DNA from: Caldilineales bacterium
GTDB lineage: Bacteria; Chloroflexota; Anaerolineae; J102
Assembly (NCBI GenBank): GCA_019695115.1
Contig: JAIBAP010000013.1
Location: forward strand, 36,179 to 100,178
Length of the DNA stretch: 64,000 nucleotides
Direction of reading: 5' to 3'
The first letter of the stretch is position 1, and the number at the start of each line of letters is the position of its first letter. Shown in pieces: positions 1 through 13,206 of the stretch. The position numbers were made by a program, and so were the translations under genes. The notes beneath the pieces are model-generated. The model was given only the letters and a program-made list of their open reading frames with translations. It was not told the DNA's origin and did not search any database.

Positions 1-2
1 AG

Positions 3-1349
3 TTGCAGCCTGACGCCGGGCATATTGTCTTCCGGGGCGAGAAGCGCGCCATCCCCAACCCGTTCGTCTCGCAGCAGATGGGCATCAGCGTCGTCTATCA
101 GGAACTGGCGCTGTGCCCCAACCTGAGCATCGCCGAAAACGTCTCGCTGAGCCGGGTGGCCGCGGCCCGCGGCCTGAGCTTCCTCAACCGGCGGGAGTTC
201 AACACCCGCGCCCGCGAGGCCCTGGCCAGCCTGGGCCTGGAGAAGGTCAATCTCGGCCAGCCGGTGGGGCAACTCACGGTGGCGCAACAACAACTGGTCG
301 AGATCGCCAAAGCGATTTCGGGCCAGGCGCGGCTGCTCATCCTCGACGAACCCAACTCGGCCCTGACGCAGGACGAGACCACCCACCTGTTCACCGTTCT
401 CCGGCGGCTGCGGGCGACCGGCGTGGGCATCGTCTACGTCTCGCACCGGCTGGAGGAGGTGCTGAGTCTGGCCGACCGCATCACCGTCCTGCGCGATGGC
501 AAGCTGATCGAGACGATGCCCGCAGCCGGGGCCACGATCGACGGGCTGATCACGCGCATGGTGGGGCGAGAGATCGACAGCCTCTATCATCGCACGACTG
601 CCGCCAGCATGCGCCCCGAGCTGGTCTTCGAGGTCAAGAACCTGTCGAGCGGCGCCGCCCTGCAAGCCGTATCGTTTGGCATCCATGCCGGCGAGATCGT
701 GGGGGTGGCCGGGCTACCCGACGCCGGCAAGGATGAACTGGTGGCTTGCTGCTTCGGCTTGCGACCCCACATCGGCGAGATTCTGGTCAAAGGACGCCCC
801 ATCGCCCTCCGATCACCCGGCGTGGCGATCGCGAACGGTCTGGCTTTCGTCCCCGCCGACCGTCGCACCTCCGGCGCCCTGCTGGTGATGAGTGTGCAGG
901 ACAACGTCTCGGCGTCCAACCTCGAAGCCGTGAGCACGGCCGGATTTCTGAACCGCGCCGCCATGCGCGCCGTCGGGCAGGAGTATGTCGACAAGCTGGA
1001 TGTTCGCATCGCCAGCTTGGGCCAACAAATGGCCACGCTCAGCGGCGGCAATCAGCAGAAAGTCATCGTTGGCCGGGGCATGGCCACCCGACCCTCGGTG
1101 CTGATCCTGCACGAGCCGACGCGCGGTATCGATGTGGGCGCCAAGGCCGAAATTTATGGCATCCTCCAAGACCTGGCCCGGGAGGGCGTGGGCTTGCTGG
1201 TGGTCTCGTCCGAGCTGCCAGAGCTGATCGGTCAGTGCGACCGCATTCTCGTCCTCTACGCCGGGCGCATCACCGGCGAATTCACCCGCGCTGGCGCCTC
1301 GGAGGAGGCGATCCTGGCCTGCGCCATGGGCCAGGCAACACACTTGTGA
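3..1349 (+). CDS. sugar (ribose/monosaccharide-type) ABC transporter ATP-binding protein, tandem-NBD type; 5' end outside window
   Basis: The ORF runs in from the window edge. It has Walker B/D-loops LLILDEPNSAL and VLILHEPTRGID and the ABC signature LSGGNQQKV. It is followed by rbsK and rbsD. Confidence 0.85.
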   Translation: MQPDAGHIVFRGEKRAIPNPFVSQQMGISVVYQELALCPNLSIAENVSLSRVAAARGLSFLNRREFNTRAREALASLGLEKVNLGQPVGQLTVAQQQLVEIAKAISGQARLLILDEPNSALTQDETTHLFTVLRRLRATGVGIVYVSHRLEEVLSLADRITVLRDGKLIETMPAAGATIDGLITRMVGREIDSLYHRTTAASMRPELVFEVKNLSSGAALQAVSFGIHAGEIVGVAGLPDAGKDELVACCFGLRPHIGEILVKGRPIALRSPGVAIANGLAFVPADRRTSGALLVMSVQDNVSASNLEAVSTAGFLNRAAMRAVGQEYVDKLDVRIASLGQQMATLSGGNQQKVIVGRGMATRPSVLILHEPTRGIDVGAKAEIYGILQDLAREGVGLLVVSSELPELIGQCDRILVLYAGRITGEFTRAGASEEAILACAMGQATHL

Positions 1350-1424
1350 TTGCGAAGTGCGGATTGCGAACTACGAATTGGCTATGATCGATGGCTGGTC
1401 GAAGAGATGAAGATCGGTTCTGAA

Positions 1425-1512
1425 ACGTGGTGCGTGTTGCGTGGTGCGTGGTGCGTGAAAATTGCCGACATCTTCTCACGCTTCACGTTTCACGTCTCAC
1501 GTTTCACGTTTT
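1425..1512. repeat. inverted arrays of CACG-core heptamers (GTGCGTG-type left arm, TCACGTT-type right arm) around a ~14-nt spacer, ending in TTTT
   Basis: Read directly: acgtggtgcgtgttgcgtggtgcgtggtgcgtgaaaa ... tctcacgcttcacgtttcacgtctcacgtttcacgtttt. It lies between the ABC ATPase stop and rbsK. Confidence 0.8.
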
Positions 1513-1627
1513 GAAGTCTTCATAGCGAACAATTTTGCGATCAACAGCTCGTATCATGTAGCCAATCTGTATTTGCATGCTACGGAATACGTAACACGAA
1601 ACACGCATTCAAGCGGAGATCGAGACC

Positions 1628-2557
1628 ATGACTCAACCTATCATTACGGTTGTCGGCAGTTTTGCTGTGGGTATGACCCTGCGCACGACGCGTATGCCAC
1701 TGTTCGGTGAGACGCTGATCGGCGCCGATTTTGACATGGGGCCGGGCGGCAAGGGCTCCAATCAGGCCGTGGGGACAGCGCGGCTGGGCGCGCGTTCGTA
1801 CTTCGCCGGCATCATTGGCGACGACAAGCTGGGCGAGATCGCCAGCGATCTGTACGCCGCCGAGGGAGTCGATACGACCTATCTGCACAAGACTACGAAG
1901 ATGGCGACCGGCGTCGGCTTCATCATCCTCAACGAGCGCGGCGAGAACGGCATCATTCTGGATATGGGCGCCAACAAGCTGATGGACGCTGCCTTCGTCG
2001 ATCAGGTCGAGGCGCAGATTGCCCGCAGCGATGTGGTGATGTCGGTGCTCGAATTACCGGCAGCGGCGGCGGCGCGGGCGATGGCCCTGGGCCGGAAGCA
2101 CGGCGTGCGCACCATCCTCAATCCCGCTCCGGCCACCCGCCTCGATGACGCGGTGCTGGCGACGGTCGACTACCTGACCCCCAACGAAACCGAACTGCGT
2201 ATTTTGCTAGGGCTGGACCCTGGCGATCCCACGCCCACCATCGATCTGGCCCAGGAGATGCGCAAGCGCGGCGTGGGCAACCTGATCGTGACCATGGGCG
2301 AGAAAGGCGCCCTGGTGCTGACCGACCACGAGCAATTCACCGTCCCGCGCGTCGATGTCGAAGTCGTGGACACCACCGGCGCCGGCGATGCCTTCAACTC
2401 AGGACTGGCCGTAGCCCTGGCCGAAGGTCGCCCCCTGTTGGAGGCCGTGCGCTTTGCCAACTGCGCTGGCGCCCTGGCCTGCACCAAACTCGGCGTCATC
2501 CCCGGCCTCGCCTCCCGCGCCACCGTCGATGCGCTTCTGGCGCCAGGGCGAGACTGA
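1628..2557 (+). CDS. rbsK: ribokinase (PfkB family)
   Basis: 309 aa with PfkB motifs GPGGKGSNQAVG and VVDTTGAGDAFNSGLAVALAEG. A GGAG Shine-Dalgarno sits about 10 nt upstream. The context includes rbsD and a sugar ABC ATPase. Confidence 0.85.
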   Translation: MTQPIITVVGSFAVGMTLRTTRMPLFGETLIGADFDMGPGGKGSNQAVGTARLGARSYFAGIIGDDKLGEIASDLYAAEGVDTTYLHKTTKMATGVGFIILNERGENGIILDMGANKLMDAAFVDQVEAQIARSDVVMSVLELPAAAAARAMALGRKHGVRTILNPAPATRLDDAVLATVDYLTPNETELRILLGLDPGDPTPTIDLAQEMRKRGVGNLIVTMGEKGALVLTDHEQFTVPRVDVEVVDTTGAGDAFNSGLAVALAEGRPLLEAVRFANCAGALACTKLGVIPGLASRATVDALLAPGRD

Positions 2558-2674
2558 GAGGGAGAGACCGGGAAACCGGGAAACCCATCACCCGCCACCT
2601 GCGATCCTTCGTTTCACTCAGGACAAGCTCTGCCACCTGCGACTTACCACCCTGCCTCTCCCGGAGCCAACACC

Positions 2675-3157
2675 ATGCAACGCGGTAGATTACTAAACAA
2701 CGAACTGAGCTATGCCATCGCCTCGATGGGCCACGGCGACCTGATGATCGTCTGCGACGCCGGCTTTCCTATCCCCAGCAGCGCCTGGCGCATCGACCTG
2801 GCCCTCGTGCCAGACATGCCCGACCTGGAGACCGTGCTGACGGCCGTCGCCGAAGCCTTCATCGCCGAGAAAGTGTCCTACGCGGCGGAAATGGCTGAGA
2901 ACAACCCACCGCTGCTGGCGAAAGTGCAGCGCATCTTCGCCGATAGCAACCACGAACCCATCCCGCACACCCAAATCCTGAACGAGATGGCAGCCAAAGC
3001 CAAAGTGATCGTGCGTACGGGCGCTTTCGACCCCTGGGGCAACATCCTTCTGTATTCGGGCGTGGATGCGCCGGTCTGGTTCGCCAAGCCCGGCCTGAAG
3101 GTGCCGGAGGTGTATCGACTGCGGGTGGAGCAGATGAAGCAGACGAAGGCGGATTGA
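2675..3157 (+). CDS. rbsD: D-ribose pyranase (RbsD/FucU family)
   Basis: The N-terminus LLNNELSYAIASMGHGDLMIVCDAGFPIP matches the RbsD pattern. A GGAG lies upstream. At 160 aa it is somewhat longer than typical RbsD. Confidence 0.75.
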   Translation: MQRGRLLNNELSYAIASMGHGDLMIVCDAGFPIPSSAWRIDLALVPDMPDLETVLTAVAEAFIAEKVSYAAEMAENNPPLLAKVQRIFADSNHEPIPHTQILNEMAAKAKVIVRTGAFDPWGNILLYSGVDAPVWFAKPGLKVPEVYRLRVEQMKQTKAD

Positions 3158-3247
3158 GGACAAAAGTCTGCTCGAAGGCGATGCGCCGGCAAGCGGGTCA
3201 GGCTGGCGCGTGTGCGCGCCCATCGGGCAAAACAGCAGATCCCTCTC

Positions 3248-4471
3248 CTACCCGCACCCCCCGCCGCCGGTGGGGCCTTTCTGCTCGATCTTCACCTTGG
3301 GCGTATACTCCATCTCTTTGCCATGCTCACGCAGGCTTGAGGTGGCATGGTTGCCCCCCAGGGCGGCATCGATCACAAAGCGCAACTCCTCATCGCCGCC
3401 CGGCATCGCCTCGAAAGGCGTCTCGCTGCACAAGGCGATGAAGTTGTTCAGCCCGCCCTCCAGGATGTAGAGATTGGGGACCTCCGCCGCCGCCAGCAGC
3501 TTCCATCCCGCCGTCGCCAGCGTCTCGTCATTGCTCATCAGCACCACCACGGTGCCGTCCGGAGCCGCTTTCAGCTCAGTCGCCAGCGCCGGCAGGTCGG
3601 TCAGCGATGCACGCTCGGCGCCTTTGATGTGAAAGAGATTGTAATCGGCTTCCGGGCGCACATCGAGCATGACCAGATTGACCCGGGTGTTGAAGAAGAC
3701 ATCGCGCAATTCCGCCGGATGAATCTGCACCTGGCGGTTGTCCAGCAGCGGCTGCTTTTCGGCGGCCATGCGTTGCCACAGTTGCGCGGACGTGGGTTGG
3801 CCGATCAGCAGCACCGCCAATCCCCCCGCCACCAGCAGCGCCCAACCCGCCATCGTCTTCCTCCCCACCCCTGCCACGGCCAGCCCATCCTTCCGCCGCA
3901 TCGATTTCTCGAGCTGCTCGGCCCCCCACAGCGCCAGCACGCCGACGACCGTGACCAAAAAGACAGTGACGCCGACCGGCAGCCCCAGCAGATCGGGGAG
4001 GGTGAAGCGGCCCATGTAGGTCGATTCTAGAAAATGATCGTAGTATTTCGAGGTCTCGCCAAACAGGACGACGCCGCCCAGAATGCCGATCAGGAAGAAC
4101 CCGGCATCCTTTTTCAGCGTGGCCAGGGCGGCGATGGAGGTGCCGGGGCAGAAGCCGCCGATGATGAAGCCCACGCCCACCAGCAGCCCGCCCAGCGCGC
4201 CCGGCAGCAGATACGTCGGCGGCACCCAGATGCGGTCGAAATCCAGCCAGCCCAGGCCGGCAAAGCCATACACCAGCACCATGGCCGCCAACACCGCCGT
4301 GAACATGACCTTGAACACGGTCATATCGCGCAGATAGAACTGGGCGGTGAGCTTAGTCGAGCGGCCAAAGCCCACCGTTTCCAGGGCGACGCCAAAGCCC
4401 ATGCCGATCAGCACGTAGAGAAGATAGGTTGCGGTTTTGCCAATCGTGGCATCCAGGGGAAAGGGGCCCAT
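3248..4471 (-). CDS. YeeE/YedE (Sulf_transp) half-transporter fused to an extra TM helix, a rhodanese-like domain and a C-terminal GGGGCG tail
   Basis: It carries the conserved GGFCPGTS motif of YeeE/YedE in a multi-TM N-terminal part. The C-terminal ~160 aa have the rhodanese layout (LVMLDVRPEADYNLFHIKGA ... VVVLMSNDE ... ILEGGLNNF). The protein ends KGPTGGGGCG-stop. The start is placed at the ATG preceded by GGAGGAG; the track ORF starts 12 nt earlier at TTG. Confidence 0.8.
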   Translation of the reverse strand: MGPFPLDATIGKTATYLLYVLIGMGFGVALETVGFGRSTKLTAQFYLRDMTVFKVMFTAVLAAMVLVYGFAGLGWLDFDRIWVPPTYLLPGALGGLLVGVGFIIGGFCPGTSIAALATLKKDAGFFLIGILGGVVLFGETSKYYDHFLESTYMGRFTLPDLLGLPVGVTVFLVTVVGVLALWGAEQLEKSMRRKDGLAVAGVGRKTMAGWALLVAGGLAVLLIGQPTSAQLWQRMAAEKQPLLDNRQVQIHPAELRDVFFNTRVNLVMLDVRPEADYNLFHIKGAERASLTDLPALATELKAAPDGTVVVLMSNDETLATAGWKLLAAAEVPNLYILEGGLNNFIALCSETPFEAMPGGDEELRFVIDAALGGNHATSSLREHGKEMEYTPKVKIEQKGPTGGGGCG

Positions 4472-4507
4472 GTGCTCCTCCAAATCGAATCGAACGGGGT
4501 GAGGGTG

Positions 4508-5098
4508 TCAGTGCGGCGCCTCTGCCGGCTGCCAGAGCTTGCGCAGGACGTAGGCCAGGGCATAGCCGCCGAAGAAAAAGGCCATCAGGAAGGCCCAGCT
4601 CCCCACCGAGAGCGTGGCCCCGCCCGACAGCCCCTGCCCCGATGTGCAGCCCCTGGCCATGCGGGCGCCAAAACCAGCGATCACGCCGCCGAGCAGGGCG
4701 AAGAGCCAGCGCTGACGGTCGCTGATCTGCGGGCCGCGCACCGTCTCCCACTTGATCCGGCGGCCGCGCCAGCCCGACGCCAGGCCGCCCAGAAAGATGC
4801 CCACCGTCAGCAGCACGATCCAGTTGTCGAGCGCGTTCTTATCGCCGCCGGCATATTGCACGAGATAGGAGACGCGGTCGGCATACTGCGGCGCCGCCAG
4901 ATCGATCAGCCAGACGACCATGCGATTGAGGCCGCCGGACGCGCCCAGGCCGTTGCCGGTGAGATAGAAGGCCAGAAAAAGCACCACGCCCAGGAACAGC
5001 CCGCCGAGATAGGGGTTGGTGAAAGGTCGGGGCTGGGCCGCGGGCCTGGCCTTGGCCCGGCTCTTGGAGTCCAGTTTTGCTTGTGTGGCAGTCGTCAT
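4508..5098 (-). CDS. YeeE/YedE (Sulf_transp) family half-transporter
   Basis: A 196-aa polytopic membrane protein with GARMARGCTSGQGLSGG, the conserved Cys-containing motif of YeeE/YedE. It lies 36 nt upstream of the second half-transporter gene. Confidence 0.8.
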   Translation of the reverse strand: MTTATQAKLDSKSRAKARPAAQPRPFTNPYLGGLFLGVVLFLAFYLTGNGLGASGGLNRMVVWLIDLAAPQYADRVSYLVQYAGGDKNALDNWIVLLTVGIFLGGLASGWRGRRIKWETVRGPQISDRQRWLFALLGGVIAGFGARMARGCTSGQGLSGGATLSVGSWAFLMAFFFGGYALAYVLRKLWQPAEAPH

Positions 5099-5123
5099 GT
5101 GCAGATACCTCTCGTGAGCAGGA

Positions 5124-7820
5124 TCAAATCGTCGCCTCGTGCACTTCCACCTGATCCCAGCCGGTGATCATCCCCCGCAGGTCGGCGGTGATGGTGGCGC
5201 CGGTCGTGGTCAGATACATGTGCAAAATCAGGAACGAGACGAAGAACCAGGCGACGAGCGTGTGAATCGGAGCCAGATAGGGCAGATGCGCGGCCAGGTC
5301 GGGCCACAGGCTCACCCCGAACATGAGCAGGCCGGTGAGGATCTGCGCCGGCAGCAGCAGGTTGAGGATGGCGAAGTAGGTGAGCTGTTGCAGGGGGTTG
5401 AGCCTGCGCTTGCGCGTCTTGGCGAAGGGGTGCGGGTCGCCGCGGAAGATGCCGCGCAGATAGTAATCGATCTGCATCAGGCCCTGGCTGAAGAAGCCAT
5501 GCGGCTGCGGCAGATATTGCTTGATCTCGCCGCTGGCGAAGTGGTAGAACAACGAGAAGGCGGCATTGAGGACCAGCAGGATGGCGAGGATGTTGTGCAC
5601 CGGCACCACCAGACCGAAATCGACAGCGCCGAACTGGTCGGGGCGATGGATGACGATGCCGGTGAGGATCAGCAGGATGATGACGATGGCCTGCGTCCAA
5701 TGCCACAGCCGCTCGTAGAAGCCATACATGTACACTTCTTTCAGTTCCGGCGCCGCCGGCGGATGGCTGGCAGAGCTGTACAGGCGGTAGCCGCCGTGGA
5801 CGATGATGCCCAGCAACACCGCCAGCACCGCCCCCCAGCCCACGAAATCGACCCAGGGCAGGCGGTTGTGGCCGGGGAGATAGAGATTTTCGGCCGAGAT
5901 GTTGAGGGCATAGAGCAAGTCCCCCTCCTCGCCGGCGCCAAAATCGCCGCTGAGCGAGACGCCGGAATGACCGGCGAAGGCCGGCGTGGCCCCACCCGGC
6001 GTGTAGGGCGCCAGCGATAGGCCGGCGGCGAGGCGAGACTCGTCGCTGTGGCAGGCGTCGCAGTCGCGCGTGGCCCATTCCCCCGCCACCACATTGTGGC
6101 TGATGTTGTAGGGCGTCACCTCGCCCCGGATCTCCAGGTTCTGCAAGCCCAGAGCCTCCAGGCGGCCCCGGATCAAGGCGATCTTGAAATCGCTGTCCAG
6201 ACGCAGCTCGGTCTCGTCCAACTGCCCATCCTTGTTGGCATCGAAGGCGGCGAGGACATCGGCCTGATAGCCCTCGCCCTGCAGATAGGCCGCTTGCAAA
6301 TCCTCTTGCCGCACCGGCCGTTCCGGATCGCCCTGCACCCAATACCAGGTCGTGATCAAGTTGAAGGGCGCCAGCTTGACGCCGCCGCTCGCCTGCGCCT
6401 GTGGCAGCAGGATGGGGTCATAGCCGACCATCAGGTCGCGCGGGTTGCCGCATTCGCCCTCCACCCCGCGGTGGGTGGTGGGCGCGGTTCCTTCCAGGTT
6501 CAGCACCGTCCAATCCACCGCTGCCAGCGCCGCCGTGTACATCTTGGGAATATGGCACGATTCGCAGGCCAGGGCGTTCATATGCGTCTCGGTGTAGGGC
6601 AGCCAGGCGTGCGTGACCTTGACCTCATGACAATCGGCGCACTGCCGCATCGTGTCAGTCATTTCCGGCGCCAGGGCGTGCTGGGCGGTGTCGCCTTTGG
6701 CAAAATCGTGGCTGGGCCGGTAGAGATAGTCGCCCAGGGGCTGCCGCCGGGGGTCGTAGATCAGATATTCGGGGCGGGTGACCTCCGATTCTTTCCGATA
6801 GGCGGGGTTATTGAGCGAGAAATGGCAGTCGGTGCACTTCAGATTGCGCTCGGCGTGGATGTCCCAAGGCAGCGTCAGCCCCTCTTTCCCGGCCATGTTC
6901 AGGCCCGAATCGGAGAGGCGCTGACCCGAATAGATCTGACCGGTGCGCAGCGAACTCCAGTCGCTGGCCTTGATGTCGGCGCAGATCAGCGGGTCGTTTT
7001 CGAGATGCACGGCGCCATGACACTGCCCGCAGTTGCTCGAAGTCGCGGCCTGCACAGGCATGAACGCCGGCTGCAAGGTCCCATCCTTCTGAAAAGCCTC
7101 GGCCTGCCACACCCAGCCATCGCCCACTTTCTCCACGATCCCGGTCCCCGCCAAAATGGCTGTATTCGCCCAGCCGAATTGCCCGGCCAGCAGCGCCTGG
7201 GTGCGGGCCTCATTATCCGGCGCGGCGATGTGGCAGAGGAAGCAGTTCATTTCCACCACGCCCGAGGCCTGCCAATCCCAGGCGCTGTCGGCGCCGGTGG
7301 CGGGGTCGTGGTGGGTGGTTTCGGGGTCGCCGACGGCCGGGGCCAGCGTGGTCAGGCTGGCTCCATCCTGGCTGACGGCCGCCGGCCCGCCGCCCACGTG
7401 CCGCAGGCCATAGGTCTGGATCCAATCGGGCAGGCCCAGATCGAACAGGGCATCGCCGGCAGGGGTGAGATAGCGGTAGAGCACCGGATCCCACTTGCCG
7501 TACAGCCCCCGGCTCAGGTCCCAGGCCCGGCCATCCGACACCCGCCCGGCGGCGACGGCATGATCCTGGCCGACGGCGGCGTGATAGCTGTGGGCAGTGA
7601 TGTAGGCGGTGTCGTGGCAGCCGCCGCAGCTCTGCTCGGTGGAAACGGGTTTCCCGGAGATAAGGACGTTCACGCCCGCGGCATCGACCAGGGGGAAGGT
7701 GGGGTGCAGGGGCGAAGGGTCAGCCTGGACGCTGCCGGCGAGGGCCAGCAGCAGAGCCAGGGCCAGGCCCAAGCCGGCAAGCGCTGGCCAGCGTCGCGTC
7801 AGACGGTTGCAAGCGATCAT
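5124..7820 (-). CDS. heptaheme cytochrome c fused to a C-terminal membrane cytochrome b domain (PhsC/FdnI/HydC-like, PF01292-type)
   Basis: Signal peptide MIACNRLTRRWPALAGLGLALALLLALAGSVQA. Seven CXXCH motifs (CGGCH, CFLCH, CGQCH, CTDCH, CADCH, CESCH, CDACH). The C-terminal ~200 aa have 4-5 TM helices and conserved His (LWHWTQAIVIILLILTGIVIH, PVHNIL, FYHF, LILHMYL). The start is chosen at the ATG that forms an ATGA overlap with the upstream stop. Confidence 0.85.
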   Translation of the reverse strand: MIACNRLTRRWPALAGLGLALALLLALAGSVQADPSPLHPTFPLVDAAGVNVLISGKPVSTEQSCGGCHDTAYITAHSYHAAVGQDHAVAAGRVSDGRAWDLSRGLYGKWDPVLYRYLTPAGDALFDLGLPDWIQTYGLRHVGGGPAAVSQDGASLTTLAPAVGDPETTHHDPATGADSAWDWQASGVVEMNCFLCHIAAPDNEARTQALLAGQFGWANTAILAGTGIVEKVGDGWVWQAEAFQKDGTLQPAFMPVQAATSSNCGQCHGAVHLENDPLICADIKASDWSSLRTGQIYSGQRLSDSGLNMAGKEGLTLPWDIHAERNLKCTDCHFSLNNPAYRKESEVTRPEYLIYDPRRQPLGDYLYRPSHDFAKGDTAQHALAPEMTDTMRQCADCHEVKVTHAWLPYTETHMNALACESCHIPKMYTAALAAVDWTVLNLEGTAPTTHRGVEGECGNPRDLMVGYDPILLPQAQASGGVKLAPFNLITTWYWVQGDPERPVRQEDLQAAYLQGEGYQADVLAAFDANKDGQLDETELRLDSDFKIALIRGRLEALGLQNLEIRGEVTPYNISHNVVAGEWATRDCDACHSDESRLAAGLSLAPYTPGGATPAFAGHSGVSLSGDFGAGEEGDLLYALNISAENLYLPGHNRLPWVDFVGWGAVLAVLLGIIVHGGYRLYSSASHPPAAPELKEVYMYGFYERLWHWTQAIVIILLILTGIVIHRPDQFGAVDFGLVVPVHNILAILLVLNAAFSLFYHFASGEIKQYLPQPHGFFSQGLMQIDYYLRGIFRGDPHPFAKTRKRRLNPLQQLTYFAILNLLLPAQILTGLLMFGVSLWPDLAAHLPYLAPIHTLVAWFFVSFLILHMYLTTTGATITADLRGMITGWDQVEVHEATI

Positions 7821-9301
7821 TTCGCACCCCCTTCGCCGCCGGCGGCGCTTTGCGTAACCAGCAGGCGCTCGGCCCGGCCGCCGTAGAACATCGGATCGCC
7901 CTCGTAGCCCAACGCCCGCCAATCGAGGATGCCTTCGCCGTTCTCGACATGGCAGGTATCGCATTGCAGGGCCTGCTCTTTGGGGGCGACCATGTGCGTG
8001 ATCGGCCAATACATCTCGGTCGGGGCGAAGTCATAGTGGCCGCTGTAGGCGATGCCGTTGGCCTCTGACCCCAGCCGGGCGGCCTCGTCCCAATCGAAAT
8101 CGGTCCAATAGCCGCCTTCGCCATAGGTTTTGGGCACGAGCAGATAGTTGTACTCGCTGTCGTAAATCTGCTGGGCGTGATGGATTTTGAACGGCCAGAT
8201 GCGGGCGTTGGGGTCGTCGATGTCGCCGGTGGGGCGGTTGATGGCCGTCACCGCCTGCGGGTCGATGACATCGCCGAGAATGTAGCGCTCGGTGCCGCCA
8301 TTGTACCAGGCGTAATCGGGCACGACATTGTCTTCATAGACAAACGCACCCTTGATCTTCAAATACTCGTGCGGATCCTGCGGTAGATCCAGCCCTGCCT
8401 GCGACCAGTCCCACTCCACCTTCGTCGCCAGTTTGCGGGCGAATTCGGGGATGTGGCAGGTCTGGCAGGCCAGGGTGGAGGCATGGATGTTGATGCGGGA
8501 GTCGTCATGCGGCGTGGGCGAATGGCAGTCGGTGCAGGCGATCTGGCGAGCAGCGTCCATGCTGACCGAGATCGAGCGCCCGCCGATCTGATGGTCTGCC
8601 GTGCGGTGGCAGTCGGTGCAGACGAAATCGTGCTTGCCCATGTGTACGTCGAGATCATCGTTGGGGAAGGTAAGCGAGGTGTCCAGGTCGCCATGCTTGA
8701 CGGCATCGCCGCCGCCGCCGTTGAAATGGCAGCTGCCGCAGTTGTTGCGGGTGGGGTTGCCCACGCTCTGCGCCACCGCCGCCAGATCGACGCTCTCGGC
8801 AGGCTGGCCGCCATTCTTCTTGACATAGGTTCCGGTGGTGTCGTGACAAACCAGGCAATCGACATGGGTCATGTCGGTGAAATCGAAGGTCGCATCTTCC
8901 CAGCCGTAGCCGGCATGGCAGGCGGTGCAGGGCGGCCAGTTGGAGGTGATGCCGATGCAGAAATTGTTGAGCACGTATTTCTTGCCCCCCATCACCGGCT
9001 CGTCATGGCCGGGCAGATCATAGGGGCCGTGCTCCCAAGTGAAGTGCGACGATTGCAACATCTGCGCCCCCGCCTGGGGATGGCACTCCAGACAGGCCTG
9101 GGTAACCTCCTGCCCGCTGGCGAAGGGGCCTTGCAGCACGGTCATGGTGTGTTCGGTGTGAACAGGGTGTTTGGGGACATGCGCCCAGGGGTCATCGGCG
9201 GTGGCGGATGGTCTGGGCAGAAACAGGAACAACGCCAAAACAATCAGGGCGGCCGTGATCGCTGCCCCGATGATCCAGGAGCGTCTTTGGTATTTTCTCA
9301 T
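7817..9301 (-). CDS. membrane-anchored octaheme cytochrome c, probably octaheme tetrathionate reductase (OTR) family
   Basis: N-terminal TM anchor and eight CXXCH motifs (CLECH, CTACH, CLVCH, CGSCH, CTDCH x2, CQTCH, CDTCH). The motifs NNFCIG, CTACHAGYGW, CHFNGGGGDAVKHGD and CQTCHIPEF match my recollection of the OTR family. No HMM was run. Confidence 0.65.
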   Translation of the reverse strand: MRKYQRRSWIIGAAITAALIVLALFLFLPRPSATADDPWAHVPKHPVHTEHTMTVLQGPFASGQEVTQACLECHPQAGAQMLQSSHFTWEHGPYDLPGHDEPVMGGKKYVLNNFCIGITSNWPPCTACHAGYGWEDATFDFTDMTHVDCLVCHDTTGTYVKKNGGQPAESVDLAAVAQSVGNPTRNNCGSCHFNGGGGDAVKHGDLDTSLTFPNDDLDVHMGKHDFVCTDCHRTADHQIGGRSISVSMDAARQIACTDCHSPTPHDDSRINIHASTLACQTCHIPEFARKLATKVEWDWSQAGLDLPQDPHEYLKIKGAFVYEDNVVPDYAWYNGGTERYILGDVIDPQAVTAINRPTGDIDDPNARIWPFKIHHAQQIYDSEYNYLLVPKTYGEGGYWTDFDWDEAARLGSEANGIAYSGHYDFAPTEMYWPITHMVAPKEQALQCDTCHVENGEGILDWRALGYEGDPMFYGGRAERLLVTQSAAGGEGGAK

Positions 9302-9323
9302 GACGATCGCTCTCTTGTGGCTC

Positions 9324-9345
9324 GCGGCCTCGGCGCCGAGGCCGC
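9324..9345. promoter_or_regulatory. 22-bp perfect palindrome gcggcctcggc|gccgaggccgc between the regulator gene and the cytochrome operon
   Basis: Read directly. It lies in the 73-bp gap between the stop of the HTH-PocR gene and the start of the octaheme cytochrome gene. It could be an operator or an RNA hairpin, and no T-tract follows it. Confidence 0.5.
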
Positions 9346-9374
9346 CAACCGGGATGGGAGAATGGCTTATGTGC

Positions 9375-10121
9375 TCAGAGATGGCTCATTTCGGCAATGA
9401 CGCGGAAGCGGTTGACGAAATCGGCGCGCTCGCGGCCAATATCCTCGAACGTGTGCGCGACCTTCTCCAACCAGTTGCCGATCTGTCCGCGCATACGCTC
9501 GTCCAAAACCGGCAGACGCCGGGCCGCCTGGCTGAGCGAGTCTTCGTCGATGCCATGTTTGTGCGCCAGCGCCCGGATGCGTGCGGCTTCCTCGGCGGCA
9601 TCAGGTGGCTGGGCATAGAATTGCCCGGCAATCAGCATGGCGGCCAGATCGCGCCCCGCCAGCTCGATGCGGGCGCGGGCATATTGCAGCCCGGCATGGC
9701 AACTGGCAAAGGTGGGGCGCTGTTCGGATTGTCGGGCGAGCCTGGCCCATGATGCCTGGCAGTCTCTCCGCCCCGTCTCGCTGGCCAGGATCAGGTTGCA
9801 GAACGTGCAGGCATTGCTGATCGCGGTCATGGGCGCGCCGTCCGGGTCGGTGGTGACGGCGCCCACCTGGGCGACTTCGGCAAAGACATCCTGCACGCGC
9901 TGCACACAGGGCAGCGGCAATACCTGGGCGTGAGACCCAGGGGCCACCGCAGGCGTCGATTTGTCCCCCGTCAGTAACGCCTCGACCGCTCCGCGCTCGA
10001 AACGCCACTGCTGGCCGATCTTGGCGCCCGCGAGCCGGCCATCCTGCAACATGCGGTAGATGGTGGTACGGTCGACCTGGAGGAATTCCTGCACCTGCCT
10101 GGCATTGAGATAGTCGGTCAT
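9375..10121 (-). CDS. transcriptional regulator: excisionase/MerR-type HTH plus PocR-like sensory domain
   Basis: N-terminus LNARQVQEFLQVDRTTIYRMLQDGRLAGAKIGQQWRF (excisionase-family HTH). The remainder has a PocR-like Cys pattern (CTFCNLILASETGRRDCQASW ... FASCHAGL). Confidence 0.7.
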   Translation of the reverse strand: MTDYLNARQVQEFLQVDRTTIYRMLQDGRLAGAKIGQQWRFERGAVEALLTGDKSTPAVAPGSHAQVLPLPCVQRVQDVFAEVAQVGAVTTDPDGAPMTAISNACTFCNLILASETGRRDCQASWARLARQSEQRPTFASCHAGLQYARARIELAGRDLAAMLIAGQFYAQPPDAAEEAARIRALAHKHGIDEDSLSQAARRLPVLDERMRGQIGNWLEKVAHTFEDIGRERADFVNRFRVIAEMSHL

Positions 10122-10322
10122 GGCGCCTGCTTGCCTCTTTGTGCAATAAAGTACAATAGCATGCCATGATCTTAGCCGGCTCGCGCTTGCCGATCAATGA
10201 TCTAAATCATAGTGCCGCCCCCCCTGCGGCGATGACGATGGGCGTCGGGCGGGTGAATCCGTAGCCAAAACCGGTAAAAAAGAGAGCCAGCCAACCCCGA
10301 CAGGCAGAATCCCCGCTGCGAC

Positions 10323-11051
10323 TCAACTCCGGCCGTTCTGCACCGCCACGATCTCCGCCATGATCGCCAGCGCCGTCTCTTCGGGCCGCCGGCCGCCCAA
10401 CGCCAGGCCGATGGGGTTGTGGATGCGCCTCAAGGCTTCATCGCTCACCCCCAGCTCACGCAGCCGCTCGGCCCGCCTGGCCATGGTCTGGCGCGAACCG
10501 AGGGCGCCGATGTAGCGGGCGGGGCTGCGCACGGCCAGGGCCAGGGCCGGCAGGTCGATCTTGTCGTCGTGGCTGAGGACGGCGACATAGCAGCCCTCGT
10601 CCAGATTCAGGCCGGGGAGCAGGTCATCCGGCCAGCCCGGCAAGAGGTGGTCGGCGTGGCCGAAGCGGTCGGCGGTAGCAAAGGCCGGGCGAGGGTCGAT
10701 GACCGTCGTGCGGAAGCCGAGCACGCGGGCGAAGCTGACCAAGGCGATGGCGACATGGGCGGCGCCGATGATGATGAGTCGCGACGGCGGCGGGAAGACC
10801 TCGATGAAGAGGTCGTACTCCACCCCGCCCGCCACGAAACGCTCGCGGGTCGTTTGCTGATCACCCAGAAGCGCCTGCATCCGGCCGGCAACCTGCCGAT
10901 CGAGGTCGGGCTGACCCAGGCTGCCGGCGGTGCGGCCATCGGGCCAGGCCAGCATTCTGGCGCCCGGATTGGGGCCGGCCAGGACGGTGGCCGCAGCCAC
11001 CAGCCGGCCGGCTTCCAGGTCTTGCTTGAGTTGAGCGAAGATACTCGTCAT
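10323..11051 (-). CDS. XdhC/CoxI family accessory protein
   Basis: 242 aa with an N-terminal XdhC-type region and a Rossmann-like part LIIIGAAHVAIALVSFARVLGFRTTVIDPRPAF. Confidence 0.7.
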   Translation of the reverse strand: MTSIFAQLKQDLEAGRLVAAATVLAGPNPGARMLAWPDGRTAGSLGQPDLDRQVAGRMQALLGDQQTTRERFVAGGVEYDLFIEVFPPPSRLIIIGAAHVAIALVSFARVLGFRTTVIDPRPAFATADRFGHADHLLPGWPDDLLPGLNLDEGCYVAVLSHDDKIDLPALALAVRSPARYIGALGSRQTMARRAERLRELGVSDEALRRIHNPIGLALGGRRPEETALAIMAEIVAVQNGRS

Positions 11052-11069
11052 CGGGAATCGGGTAGGAGT

Positions 11070-11933
11070 CTAGCGCCGCACCTCGCCCAACAGCCAGCGG
11101 TGGTGCGCCCAGACCGCCTTGACCTGCCACGGCAGGCGGGCGTGATCCAGCCAGGCATAGTTGAGCACGCGCTGGCGCAGATCAGGCTGCTGGCCCAGGT
11201 AATAGGCCATGGTGCTCCATGTCCATGACTCGCCCGTAAACTGCCGCTCCAGCTTGCGGCTGCGGATGCCCAACCGTTTGAGCACTTCGTTGGCGGGCAT
11301 CACCGTGTCGGGCCAGGGCGGGACATCCAGCACACCCGTGGCGATGATCCTCACCCCGGCCTGCGCCAATGTCCGGCGCACCAGGCCGATGTTCACCCAA
11401 CGCTCGTCCACCGTGGGGAAGAAGTCGCGGTCGAGCAGCCATTTGCGCAGCCAGTAGCCCACCTGCAGGTTGTTGGGCATGGCCACGAAGACCAGGCCGC
11501 GGCTTAGGCGGGCCAGCTCATGCAACAACCCGGCCGCATCCGGCAGATACCACAGCGCCGCCCAGTTCCAGGTCAGGTCGAAGCTGGCGTCGGCGAAGGG
11601 CAAGGAGGGCCAGCGGTCGGGCGAGACGAGCGTCATCGCCGGCGACAGCCCCAACTCGCCCCAGATGCGTTGCACCTGCGCCGCCCGGTCTGCGGTGTCA
11701 TCCACCAACGTCACCCGGCAGCCGGCCTGGGCCAGGGGGACGCTGTTGATGCCGCTGACGCCGGCCATGCCGTAGATCGGCGCTTCCAGGGCCGTCTCCA
11801 GGCCGAAGCGCCGCCGGAGGCCCTCCAGGAAGTCGTTGAGGACAAAACGCTCGTAGACCAGACCCAGGCCTTCGTTGTAGTCGGTCAGGTATTTCTCCCA
11901 GATGGGGCGTTGGGCGTGTCCGGTGGGGGGCAT
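11070..11933 (-). CDS. class I SAM-dependent methyltransferase
   Basis: Methyltransferase core APIYGMAGVSGINSVPLAQAGCRVTLVDD. The start is placed at ATG 11933 (MPPTGHAQRPIWEKY...). The longer track ORF to 12362 reads through a DNA tandem repeat. Confidence 0.6.
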   Translation of the reverse strand: MPPTGHAQRPIWEKYLTDYNEGLGLVYERFVLNDFLEGLRRRFGLETALEAPIYGMAGVSGINSVPLAQAGCRVTLVDDTADRAAQVQRIWGELGLSPAMTLVSPDRWPSLPFADASFDLTWNWAALWYLPDAAGLLHELARLSRGLVFVAMPNNLQVGYWLRKWLLDRDFFPTVDERWVNIGLVRRTLAQAGVRIIATGVLDVPPWPDTVMPANEVLKRLGIRSRKLERQFTGESWTWSTMAYYLGQQPDLRQRVLNYAWLDHARLPWQVKAVWAHHRWLLGEVRR

Positions 11934-11946
11934 GGCGGTGGGGCGG

Positions 11947-12272
11947 GTAGGGGCGAGGTCGCCTCGCCCCGGTGGGGGGCATGGCGGGTGGGACGTGTAG
12001 GGGCGAGGTCGCCTCGCCCCGTCGGGGTGCATGGCGGTGGGACGTGTAGGGGCGAGGTCGCCTCGCCCCGGCGGGGGACATGGCGGTGGGACGTGTAGGG
12101 GCGAGGTCGCCTCGCCCCGTCGGGGGGCACGGCGGTGGGACGTGTAGGGGCGAGGTCCCCTCGCCCCGGCGAGTGCATGGCCGATGGGTCGTGTAGGGGC
12201 GAGGTCCCCTCGCCCCGGCGGTGCATGGCGGATGGGTCGTGTAGCGGGGCGAGGTCGCCTCGCCCCGCCCCG
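11947..12272. repeat. tandem repeat, 7 copies, period 49-50 bp, each with hairpin GGGGCGAGG-TC-(G/C)CCTCGCCCC
   Basis: GTAG anchors at 11947, 11997, 12046, 12095, 12144, 12193 and 12241. Inter-hairpin segments are also conserved (gcatggcggtgggacgt). It lies in the divergent intergenic region. Confidence 0.9.
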
Positions 12273-12381
12273 GCAATCATCCAATGTCAGGTCGCATCCT
12301 AGCACAAAGCCGGGCGGCGGGTATAATGGGAAGCGTCGCTTACGCTTGCGGTTCCGATTCACGTTTTACGCCTCACCCCCC

Positions 12382-13206
12382 ATGTCAATCTACCCCCTCA
12401 TCCTGCACAACGGCCAGCTGCTGCCCCAGGCCGATTGCCACATCCCCATCACCACCCCGGCCCTGGTCGGCGCCCTGGGCGTCTACGAGACCATCCTCGC
12501 CCGTCGCGGCAAAATCATCGCCCTGAATGAGCACCTGGCCCGCCTGCAAGCATCGGCCAGCGGCGCCCAACTGCACCTGGCCGCCGATCTGGCAACGCTT
12601 TGCCGTTGGTGCCGCCAGGTGTTGGCGGCCAGCGCGCCGGATGGGCTGGTGCGCGTCCTGGCGATGGACCTGGGCCGGCCGGAAGCGGACGTCTACATCT
12701 ATCAGATGTCCTACACGGCGCCGGCGGCGGCGGACTATGAGACCGGCGTGCCGGTGGTGGTTTATCACGGTGAAAGGGCGTTGCCGCTGGTGAAATCTTT
12801 CAATACCCTGGTGCCCGGCCTGGCCCGCAAGGCGGCCGTGGCCGCGGGCGCGCACGACGCCCTGCTGGTCGATCGCGATGGCTATGTGACCGAAGGCTCG
12901 AACTGCAATGTCTTCGTCGTGCAAGCGGGCGTCCTCCTGGCCCCGCCCCTGGGGGTGGTGCTCGAGGGCACGGTCATGGAACGCGTGATCCGGCTGGCCG
13001 CGGAACTGGCGATCCCCTGCCAACGCCGTCCGCTGCCGTTGGCCCAGCTTCCCCGCTGGGATGAAGCCTTCCTGACCTCGACCCGGCGCGGCGTCCTACC
13101 GATCAACCGGGTGGGCGATCATGTCCTGGGTGGGATCGGGCCGGTAACTGCGCGCTTGTGGGCGGCGTATCAAGCCTGGGAAGAGCTGCAATTGGTGAGC
13201 GATTGA
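12382..13206 (+). CDS. class IV aminotransferase (branched-chain aminotransferase / aminodeoxychorismate lyase family)
   Basis: MSIYPLILHNGQLL start and the fold-type IV motif VTEGSNCNVFVV. TATAAT at 12322-12327 lies about 55 nt upstream. Confidence 0.75.
   Translation: MSIYPLILHNGQLLPQADCHIPITTPALVGALGVYETILARRGKIIALNEHLARLQASASGAQLHLAADLATLCRWCRQVLAASAPDGLVRVLAMDLGRPEADVYIYQMSYTAPAAADYETGVPVVVYHGERALPLVKSFNTLVPGLARKAAVAAGAHDALLVDRDGYVTEGSNCNVFVVQAGVLLAPPLGVVLEGTVMERVIRLAAELAIPCQRRPLPLAQLPRWDEAFLTSTRRGVLPINRVGDHVLGGIGPVTARLWAAYQAWEELQLVSD

Follow-up and report, generated by a model that had tools for sequence, protein, structure and literature searches.

A four-gene cassette in a Caldilineales contig

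We analysed a stretch of 64,000 nucleotides (the window) from a Caldilineales bacterium of the Chloroflexota (GenBank assembly GCA_019695115.1, contig JAIBAP010000013.1, positions 36,179 to 100,178 of the forward strand). Four adjacent genes in this window, here called A, B, C and D, encode an octahaem cytochrome c of the OTR (tetrathionate reductase) family, a seven-haem cytochrome c domain fused to a membrane cytochrome b, and a YeeE/YedE-type channel split into two halves, the second of which continues into a rhodanese-like domain with a C-terminal cysteine arm (Table 1). The four genes form a cassette that recurs in at least eight phyla with gene order and strand unchanged.

The genes are tightly packed. 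The TGA stop codon of A and the ATG of B share the sequence ATGA (7817-7820), B and C are separated by 25 nt (5099-5123) and C and D by 36 nt (4472-4507). Both spacers hold a purine-rich, Shine-Dalgarno-like sequence, GAGAGG in the first and GGAGGAG in the second. An earlier note on this DNA, made from the letters alone, had described this packing and had read the genes as an OTR-like eight-haem protein, a PhsC/FdnI-type cytochrome b fused to a seven-haem domain, and a YeeE/YedE pair. Its coordinates are all confirmed, its three readings agree with the results given below, and the four family models that it named (TIGR04315, PF01292, PF04143 and PF00581) are each matched above the cut-off. B, C and D reached no specific named NCBIfam model at its cut-off. 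We infer that A, B, C and D are co-transcribed. A scan of positions 2900-10400 gave one promoter-like site, where 1.4 were expected, and eight terminator-like sites, where 4.3 ± 2.2 were expected; none was convincing at the ends of the operon.

The starts of B (7820) and D (4471) were accepted because homologue lengths and public gene calls agree with them. Homologues of B have 893-920 amino acids (aa) and those of D 407-409 aa, and the same sequence is present in three public metagenome assemblies whose independent gene calls give 494, 898, 196 and 407 aa. The TTG starts that appear in the list of open reading frames (ORFs), at 8009 for B and 4483 for D, were rejected, as they make the proteins too long compared with their homologues.

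Conservation of the cassette

A search with B found relatives in 537 species genomes, from which 80 loci were retrieved (L001-L080; B identity 50-82%). The order and strand of A, B, C and D were the same in 80 of these 80 loci, wherever the contig reaches. A reverse search, in which the rhodanese-like tail domain of D served alone as the query in a narrow alignment, found the domain in 276 species. Of the loci retrieved, 55 extended at least 6.5 kb upstream, and each of these had A, both parts of B, C and the membrane half of D. This gene arrangement is far beyond chance. The earlier note had made synteny of the YeeE genes with the cytochromes in related genomes a touchstone of its reading, and the pair is syntenic with them in both sets of loci. 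A broad alignment of standalone rhodanese-GGCG proteins was also tried as a locus query and was set aside, as no stretch of it was conserved enough.

Most loci belong to the Chloroflexota (Anaerolineales, Caldilineales, Ardenticatenaceae and Promineifilaceae). Complete cassettes were also found in bins assigned to Desulfobacterota, Myxococcales, Planctomycetota (Planctomycetia), Cytophagia, Calditrichia and Glassbacteria, and truncated loci with parts of the cassette in KSB1 and Zixibacteriota bins. Because the loci come from metagenome bins or Candidatus genomes, a taxonomy that rests on a single bin (e.g. Planctomycetota or Cytophagia) may include binning errors. We noticed no cultured isolate among the cassette loci examined, which are from metagenome-assembled or Candidatus genomes, and made no systematic search for one.

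The state of fusion varies among loci. B is interrupted by a split or a frame-shift in 11 of 67 loci; in a Ca. Anammoximicrobium bin (L150, 8047-11026) its seven-haem domain and its cytochrome b appear as two overlapping ORFs. D is cut in two in seven loci, giving a PmpB-like gene and another gene for an anchored rhodanese-GGCG protein of ~210 aa; the bins of Desulfobacterota and Myxococcales show this state (L166-L172). Such variation is the pattern expected for subunits of one complex.

A literature search for OTR together with YeeE/YedE, rhodanese and Chloroflexi or Anaerolineae found no description of the cassette. The earlier note had known of no characterised system of this composition, and the literature that we searched contained none.

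Gene A encodes an OTR-family protein

A matches TIGR04315 with 574.5 bits (cut-off 375) over model positions 2-440 of 440, and it also matches PF11783. Its residues 54-471 align with the Shewanella oneidensis OTR (SO_4144; PDB 1SP3) with an E value of 9e-160. The top family is thus OTR and not the nitrite or hydroxylamine enzymes that the earlier note had named as the alternative. Lys56 of 1SP3, reported as the axial ligand of the catalytic haem 2 (Mowat et al. 2004), and Cys64 have equivalents in Lys107 and Cys115 of A, and both of these residues are conserved in 77 of 77 cassette orthologues. Each of the eight CxxCH motifs is conserved in 87-88 of 88 aligned sequences. These comparisons strongly support the assignment of A as a genuine member of the OTR family that has the active-site lysine and cysteine of the Shewanella enzyme.

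A is a full-length homologue of the Shewanella protein, but its setting differs. The Shewanella OTR is soluble and periplasmic and has a cleavable signal, whereas A starts with a hydrophobic, anchor-like segment that does not resemble a typical cleavable signal, and A has dedicated partners. No cytochrome b, YeeE or rhodanese gene lies within 7 kb of the Shewanella gene, and the proposed electron donor of the Shewanella enzyme is CymA (PMC12949373). A second comparison is with pairs of otr and cytochrome b561, as in Ignavibacteriae Ch128a, where OTR is followed by a PF01292-type cytochrome b and the pair is read as a quinol-linked reductase (PMC7509429). In such pairs the cytochrome b has no haem c domain, and there is neither a YeeE pair nor a rhodanese-GGCG protein. 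The Bacteroidales (L159) and Desulfatibacillum (L160) loci that we examined likewise have otr and a plain cytochrome b and no other part of the cassette.

Gene B joins a seven-haem domain to a cytochrome b

The membrane part of B matches PF01292 with 74.4 bits (cut-off 30.1). Its closest named relative is the PhsC equivalog NF011582, which it reaches with 128.6 bits, under the cut-off of 204; B is a relative of PhsC and not a member of that family. In the AlphaFold2 (AF2) model of B, which has a predicted local distance difference test score (pLDDT) of 75.8, Foldseek matched the b domain to 1kqf_C, the FdnI subunit of formate dehydrogenase-N (TMt 0.66), and also to 6g94_A (HyaC). In an alignment of 58 B sequences, all seven CxxCH motifs, nine further periplasmic histidines and five histidines of the membrane domain (H707, H725, H742, H853 and H867) were invariant, and four of the latter five would ligate two b haems. 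These results strongly support the view that B is a membrane dihaem cytochrome b of the FdnI/PhsC type fused to a secreted seven-haem c domain. No gene for a molybdopterin or FeS subunit was found within the cassette.

The c domain of B has seven haems in ~620 residues, with beta-rich parts that hold no haem. Neither a sequence search nor Foldseek matched it to a structure in the PDB. The haem-free AF2 model is poor at residues 323-423. Residues 325-437, a three-haem stretch, are weakly homologous to OTR residues 185-297 (E 5e-6). The extracytoplasmic part also contains an EF-hand-like loop with the consensus FDANGDGxLDxxELRID, in which D527 and E538 are invariant. The match to Pfam EF-hand_5 is weak (E 0.0028), and the loop suggests a structural Ca2+ site.

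CbcL of Geobacter sulfurreducens, a quinol oxidase, joins a membrane dihaem b and a periplasmic multihaem c in one polypeptide (PMC9129911), and B shares this fusion architecture. However, CbcL has nine haems in a domain of ~29 kDa and feeds PpcA for mineral reduction, whereas the haems of B are spread more thinly and B, unlike CbcL, is always paired with OTR. B has no CbcL-type NCBIfam match; it is otherwise set apart from CbcL (GSU0274) by the description of that protein. The likeness brings up the reading that the cassette is a general extracellular electron conduit of the CbcL type, leading to minerals or partner cells, with OTR as an extra haem wire. The architecture of B would suit this role (PMC9129911), and all of the B haems may be bis-His ligated, given the nine further invariant histidines. 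We nevertheless regard a general conduit as extremely unlikely, since the environment of the catalytic, Lys-ligated OTR haem is conserved in all A orthologues, the obligatory YeeE channel and cysteine arm would have no role in mineral reduction, and the wire of B is sparse.

Genes C and D encode the two halves of a YeeE-type channel

C matches PF04143 with 83.4 bits (cut-off 27) over profile positions 176-309 of 310 and aligns to residues 233-329 of TsuA (8J4C/6LEO). The membrane part of D matches the same profile with 39.9 bits (cut-off 27) at positions 10-192, and in a profile alignment its residues 20-131 correspond to TsuA 6-118. Cys91 and Cys293 are essential for the function of TsuA (PMC7449682), and both have equivalents here: Cys151 of C is conserved in 153 of 153 loci and Cys108 of D is invariant in 56 sequences. 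An equivalent of TsuA Cys22 is missing from C and D. The N-terminal tail of C is rich in lysine and arginine.

PmpA and PmpB are known as a YeeE protein split into two halves (PMC11582611). As in that case, the adjacent genes C and D match the C- and N-terminal halves of YeeE and have one conserved cysteine each. C and D are longer than the ~130-aa PmpA and PmpB, and D adds an H7-like helix, a further transmembrane (TM) helix and a predicted external domain. The alignments strongly support a YeeE channel of the PmpAB type whose inverted halves are C and the first half of D. The pair does not reach the TsuA equivalogs NF041049 and NF052577 (33-37 bits against cut-offs of 400-645), and the YedE equivalog cut-offs are also missed widely.

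Like the TsuA-TsuB (YeeE-YeeD) system, the C/D channel would have a physically associated partner of the sulfurtransferase type. The partner of TsuA is cytoplasmic and TusA-like, whereas that of the C/D channel is rhodanese-like and predicted to lie outside. TsuA is also one chain of ~330-350 aa that has 9 TM helices and three conserved cysteines, whereas the channel described here is made by two genes and lacks an equivalent of Cys22.

Topology of the cassette proteins

Domains that carry c-type haems mature outside the cytoplasm, so that A and the haem part of B face outwards. In TsuA the N terminus lies outside, and helix H7 gives the two halves opposite topologies (PMC7449682). If D is mapped onto TsuA, its helices H1-H6 would have the N-out orientation and its H7-like helix would run inwards. 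The charges of the D loops alternate as an N-out orientation predicts: presumed outer loops are poor in lysine and arginine, and the presumed cytoplasmic loop at 195-203 has a mean of 3.4 such residues across 56 homologues. Helix 204-223 would then run outwards and place the rhodanese-like domain and the arm outside the membrane, tethered to the channel. The standalone relatives of ~210 aa begin with the equivalent of this element, a short positive stretch followed by a single hydrophobic helix, as in a signal anchor.

A rhodanese-like domain with a Cys/Sec arm

The rhodanese-like domain of D matches PF00581 with 42.5 bits (cut-off 22.2), and Foldseek aligned it with a probability of 1.0 to many single-domain rhodaneses, e.g. 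3fnj and 6mxv. The catalytic cysteine of 6MXV aligns to Met312 of D, and the Cx4-5R motif of the catalytic cysteine is absent. In the loop, M-S-N-D-E, Asn314 and Glu316 alone are strictly invariant. Because the catalytic cysteine is replaced by methionine, D has a rhodanese-homology domain and not a canonical sulfurtransferase.

The sole conserved cysteine of this domain lies at its very end. About 68 of 70 complete D genes end in GGCG, the cysteine is conserved in 73 of 78 further loci, and the same tail is present in the standalone relatives that we read. The low confidence of the AF2 model at residues 404-407 (pLDDT < 50) suggests that the arm is flexible. SoxY ends in GGCGG and thioredoxin reductase has the C-terminal arm GCUG. 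The arm of D is like that of SoxYZ, and loosely that of thioredoxin reductase, in being glycine-rich, flexible and C-terminal with a single cysteine, proposed to ferry sulfur adducts from one active site to another outside the cytoplasm, but the analogy is functional only. There is no homology: D has a rhodanese fold, lacks a SoxZ partner and is tethered to a channel.

The codon of the arm cysteine is TGA in the loci of six species (Table 1). These genes read GGG-TGA-(GGx/AGC)-stop, so that a Gly or Ser codon follows the TGA and precedes the true stop. A conserved 7-bp hairpin with G/U in its triloop begins 14 nt downstream, and two of the sequences show a compensatory change from C-G to A-U. 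A cysteine and a selenocysteine (Sec) at one position are the classical signature of a redox-active or nucleophilic residue. The six orthologues are candidates for a new form of selenoprotein that would carry Sec on a C-terminal arm. A 2026 review of prokaryotic selenoproteins has several rhodanese forms and a YeeE form, and the entries that we consulted include no C-terminal form (PMC13188914). The loss of the catalytic cysteine, the predicted outward position of the domain and the near-invariant Cys/Sec arm all go beyond the account of the earlier note, and the arm is probably the key to the mechanism.

Another reading is a module for the handling of selenium (or tellurium), in which selenite or another chalcogen oxyanion would be reduced outside the membrane and the reduced selenium captured on the arm and imported through a YedE-like channel. 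C matches the selenium-linked YedE/FdhT model with an E value of 1.9e-11, and the TsuA models with 2.9e-9 and 2.8e-8, all far below the cut-offs; the sole NCBIfam match of D is a weak one to a model of rhodanese-related (seleno)proteins; and the second-best match of the ArsR-type regulator described below is TsoR, of a selenoprotein operon, again below cut-off. All of these matches are weak. A Sec residue is uninformative about the substrate, the majority of the family members use Cys, and a haem wire of respiratory scale is large for the uptake of a trace element. We think that a role in selenium handling is very unlikely.

Regulators and recurrent neighbours

An ArsR/SmtB-type regulator of ~113 aa lies upstream of the cassette, on the same strand, in 62-63 of the 80 loci; the window does not have it. 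The gene is ~140 nt upstream of the OTR gene, e.g. at 6099-6440 on the plus strand of L013, and also occurs in L150 (6413-6763). The protein has a single invariant cysteine in the motif LHAxICSALADPxR and matches the generic ArsR/SmtB model NF033788 with 78.3 bits (cut-off 55). Next come the named models TsoR, CmtR and BigR, for none of which it reaches the cut-off. The window has a different regulator candidate, which matches PF10114 with 110.5 bits and PF12728 with 47.2 bits. Homologues with this HTH_17-PocR arrangement adjoin the cassette in few loci, among them L002 and L028; they are lineage-specific, and the PocR regulator was rejected as a conserved part of the cassette. The palindrome between this gene and the start of A (Table 1) may be an operator or an RNA hairpin.

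About eight of the 80 loci have genes for an SQR-like flavoprotein (Pyr_redox_2), an unassigned 228-aa protein, a DsrE_2 protein and a DsrC-like protein within 5 kb. No nitrogen-metabolism gene was found among the recurrent neighbours of the 80 loci, and no sox gene was found among them.

Table 1. Positions of the genes and features discussed in the text (window coordinates, except in the last two rows, which use the coordinates of the orthologous loci)
Feature	Residues	Position	Strand	Remark
Gene A		7817..9301	minus	494 aa, 8 CxxCH; putative catalytic subunit
A N-terminal TM anchor or signal	8-29	9215-9280	minus	
A haem motifs 1-4		9080-9094, 8915-8929, 8843-8857, 8726-8740	minus	CxxCH
A haem motifs 5-8		8606-8620, 8522-8536, 8453-8467, 7949-7963	minus	CxxCH
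A Lys107	107	8981-8983	minus	aligns with Lys56 of 1SP3, haem ligand
A Cys115	115	8957-8959	minus	aligns with Cys64 of 1SP3
Gene B		5124..7820	minus	898 aa from the ATG at 7820, 7 CxxCH
B signal peptide	1-33	7722-7820	minus	
B extracytoplasmic seven-haem c domain	34-655	5856-7721	minus	
B CxxCH motifs 1-4		7614-7628, 7230-7244, 7017-7031, 6822-6836	minus	
B CxxCH motifs 5-7		6627-6641, 6552-6566, 6048-6062	minus	
B EF-hand-like loop	521-540	6201-6260	minus	FDANKDGQLDETELR; in the extracytoplasmic part
B extra TM helix, then FdnI/PhsC-type dihaem cytochrome b	656-898	5127-5855	minus	
Gene C		4508..5098	minus	196 aa; homologue of the C-terminal half of YeeE/TsuA, PmpA-like; predicted N-in/C-in
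C Cys151	151	4646-4648	minus	within RGCTSG; equivalent to TsuA Cys293, cysteine of the periplasmic mouth
Gene D		3248..4471	minus	407 aa
D membrane part		3890..4438	minus	homologue of the N-terminal half of YeeE/TsuA; PmpB-like H1-H6 and H7-like helix
D Cys108	108	4148-4150	minus	within GGFCPGTS; equivalent to TsuA Cys91
D extra TM helix	204-223	3803..3862	minus	AF2 helix; follows the K/R-rich cytoplasmic loop
D rhodanese-like domain		3425..3736	minus	PF00581; predicted extracytoplasmic
D C-terminal arm		3248..3268	minus	GGGGCG, then stop
D Cys406	406	3254-3256	minus	codon TGC; proposed carrier/redox residue
Regulator candidate		9375..10121	minus	248 aa, HTH_17 and PocR sensory domain; 73 nt upstream of A
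Perfect 18-bp palindrome		9326-9343		GGCCTCGGCGCCGAGGCC; between the regulator gene and the OTR start
TGA at the arm cysteine codon in six loci		L028 13677, L077 12426, L199 980, L200 8467, L201 9649, L237 9583		
Sulfur-type neighbours in other loci		L050 2716-3948, L053 3447-4133, L019 5330-5836, L002 16182-16496		

A model for the cassette

Based on these observations, we lean, if only slightly, towards a model in which the cassette is a membrane module through which the (mena)quinone pool and an inorganic sulfur species at the outer face of the cytoplasmic membrane exchange electrons. Electrons would pass, in either direction, between the quinone pool and the dihaem cytochrome b, and from there by way of the seven c haems of B and the OTR protein A to the Cys/Sec arm of D. 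The relay would continue from the arm to Cys151 of C at the mouth of the channel and Cys108 of D, and from these to the cytoplasm. We infer that the proteins form a complex and that the arm carries sulfur covalently.

In this model the thiolate or selenolate of the arm would bind the substrate covalently, as a persulfide or polysulfide formed from S0 or polysulfide, or as an S-thiosulfonate formed by attack on tetrathionate. The arm would then swing the adduct into the haem-2 pocket of OTR, where it would undergo a two-electron reduction with electrons that come from quinol via B. Either the product (thiosulfate or sulfide) or the sulfane sulfur would then pass through the C/D channel, the outward-facing Cys151 of C being within reach of the arm. 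A further proposal is more tentative and concerns the substrate. We think it possible, though rather doubtful, that the physiological substrate of this large OTR branch is not a free anion but a sulfur adduct on the C-terminal Cys/Sec of the membrane-tethered, catalytically 'dead' rhodanese-like domain, with the arm moving back and forth between the OTR active site and the mouth of the split YeeE channel.

Two points make us slightly favour reduction: the b domain is closest to PhsC, and CbcL, the one characterised fusion with this architecture, is a quinol oxidase. The same architecture may run in reverse. In the oxidative direction the machine would be a sulfide, persulfide or thiosulfate oxidase. 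OTR would oxidise arm-bound sulfur, in a manner comparable to SoxAX acting on SoxY, B would reduce menaquinone at the cytoplasmic side in a proton-motive redox loop like that of formate dehydrogenase-N, and sulfane sulfur would be imported via C and D and processed in the cytoplasm (cf. the SoxT1A proposal). The proteins whose structures best match the b domain, FdnI and HyaC, do run this way, the GGCG arm resembles the SoxY carrier arm, and the SQR-like, DsrE and DsrC genes found near some cassettes would fit. However, the best sequence match of the b domain is the quinol-oxidising subunit PhsC, and many of the hosts are described as fermenters or anaerobic respirers and not as sulfur oxidisers. 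By our own thermodynamic estimate the thiosulfate/tetrathionate couple is too positive for menaquinone, which leaves only low-potential donors such as sulfide. The thiosulfate oxidase activity of OTR is also reported to be very low (PMC12949373). We therefore consider an oxidase unlikely.

Several points weigh against a sulfur module. Purified OTRs reduce nitrite and hydroxylamine far better than tetrathionate, and deletion of otr in Shewanella gave no tetrathionate phenotype (PMC12949373). The otr genes of Shewanella and Ferrimonas have no cassette partner at all, so that OTRs as a family do not share the partnership. The rhodanese-like domain, having no catalytic cysteine, might serve only for docking or as a structural element, and its outside location rests on homology and the positive-inside rule. 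The hairpin that follows the UGA could be the stem of a terminator rather than a selenocysteine insertion sequence (SECIS). The structure predictions were of single chains and do not model a contact between the arm and OTR, and the evidence is computational throughout. None of the results constrains the substrate or the direction of electron flow.

The in-vitro activities raise the question of whether the cassette is a quinol-dependent nitrite or hydroxylamine reductase for ammonification or detoxification. A would be the enzyme and B its quinol dehydrogenase, and the YeeE pair and the arm would be accessories, e.g. for the maturation or protection of the active-site cysteine. Reduction of nitrite and of hydroxylamine are the most prevalent activities of OTR in vitro (PMC12949373; PMC10949509), OTR is structurally related to NrfA and HAO (PMC12949373), and otr is routinely scored as a possible nitrite reductase in metagenome surveys (PMC8359478; PMC7887784). 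Against this stands the absolute linkage to a sulfur-type channel and a Cys/Sec arm in 80 of 80 and 55 of 55 loci across phyla. The recurrent neighbours lack nitrogen-metabolism genes, as noted above, the regulators are of the ArsR or PocR type and not of nitrite-responsive types, and we know of no nitrite reductase that requires such partners.

We prefer sulfur to nitrogen because the channel and the arm are obligatory partners, because the regulators are ArsR-type with BigR among the nearest named models, and because SQR-like, DsrE and DsrC genes adjoin the cassette in about eight loci. A further reason comes from sediment microcosms, where tetrathionate raised the level of otr transcripts 36-fold (10.1101/2020.10.01.322446). 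We judge the nitrogen reading to be quite improbable.

The systems nearest in logic to the proposed sulfur module are PhsABC and PsrABC with Sud, which combine a quinol-linked membrane subunit, an outward sulfur reductase and a periplasmic carrier of the rhodanese type. The match of the D domain to Sud (1QXN) is weak (E 0.01). The catalytic subunit of PhsABC and PsrABC is a molybdopterin protein, whereas that of the cassette is a haem c enzyme, and the carrier cysteine of Sud lies in the rhodanese active-site loop, whereas that of D lies on the C-terminal arm and the loop has methionine. Periplasmic rhodaneses have been proposed to feed both Psr and YeeE (PMC12142623).

Every domain of the cassette comes from a known superfamily, and the assembly as a whole is new to us. 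B is neither PhsC nor CbcL, C and D are not TsuA, and the arm of D is merely analogous to that of SoxY. Chloroflexota are monoderm, and the many fusions and anchors of the cassette fit hosts in which an enclosed periplasm is probably absent. The cassette would be an example of how presumed monoderms keep a periplasmic type of respiratory chemistry tethered to the membrane.

The crystallisation of OTR dates from 2004, yet its physiological function had still not been established according to a 2026 study (PMC12949373), and the cassette offers a testable clue to that role. Because every sufficiently long locus examined carried all of the cassette genes, we believe that this is the strongest genomic-context argument so far for a role of this OTR branch in sulfur metabolism. 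Most carriers belong to the Anaerolineae and related Chloroflexota, groups that abound in activated sludge, digesters and sediments; the module could therefore be a widespread route by which sulfur intermediates are cycled and one that has gone unrecognised. The cassette also adds a candidate selenoprotein family and a carrier arm that would be convergent with that of SoxY. If the substrate is indeed an adduct on the arm, the cassette would carry out respiratory sulfur reduction (or oxidation) by way of a carrier, as a haem-based counterpart to the chemistry of Sox and Psr-Sud, and would define a new selenoprotein family.

Flanking sequence

The genes on both sides of the cassette look unrelated to it. 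On the plus strand of window positions 1-3157, genes for the ATPase of a ribose ABC transporter, a ribokinase-like sugar kinase of the PfkB family and RbsD converge on gene D. On the other side, positions 10323-13206 hold genes for XdhC, a methyltransferase and a class IV aminotransferase. Between the latter two is a tandem repeat at 11920-12267, with 7.1 copies of a 49-bp unit and 90% matches. The units are G+C-rich, each contains a short inverted repeat, and together they give rise to spurious long Pro/Arg-rich ORFs in several frames.

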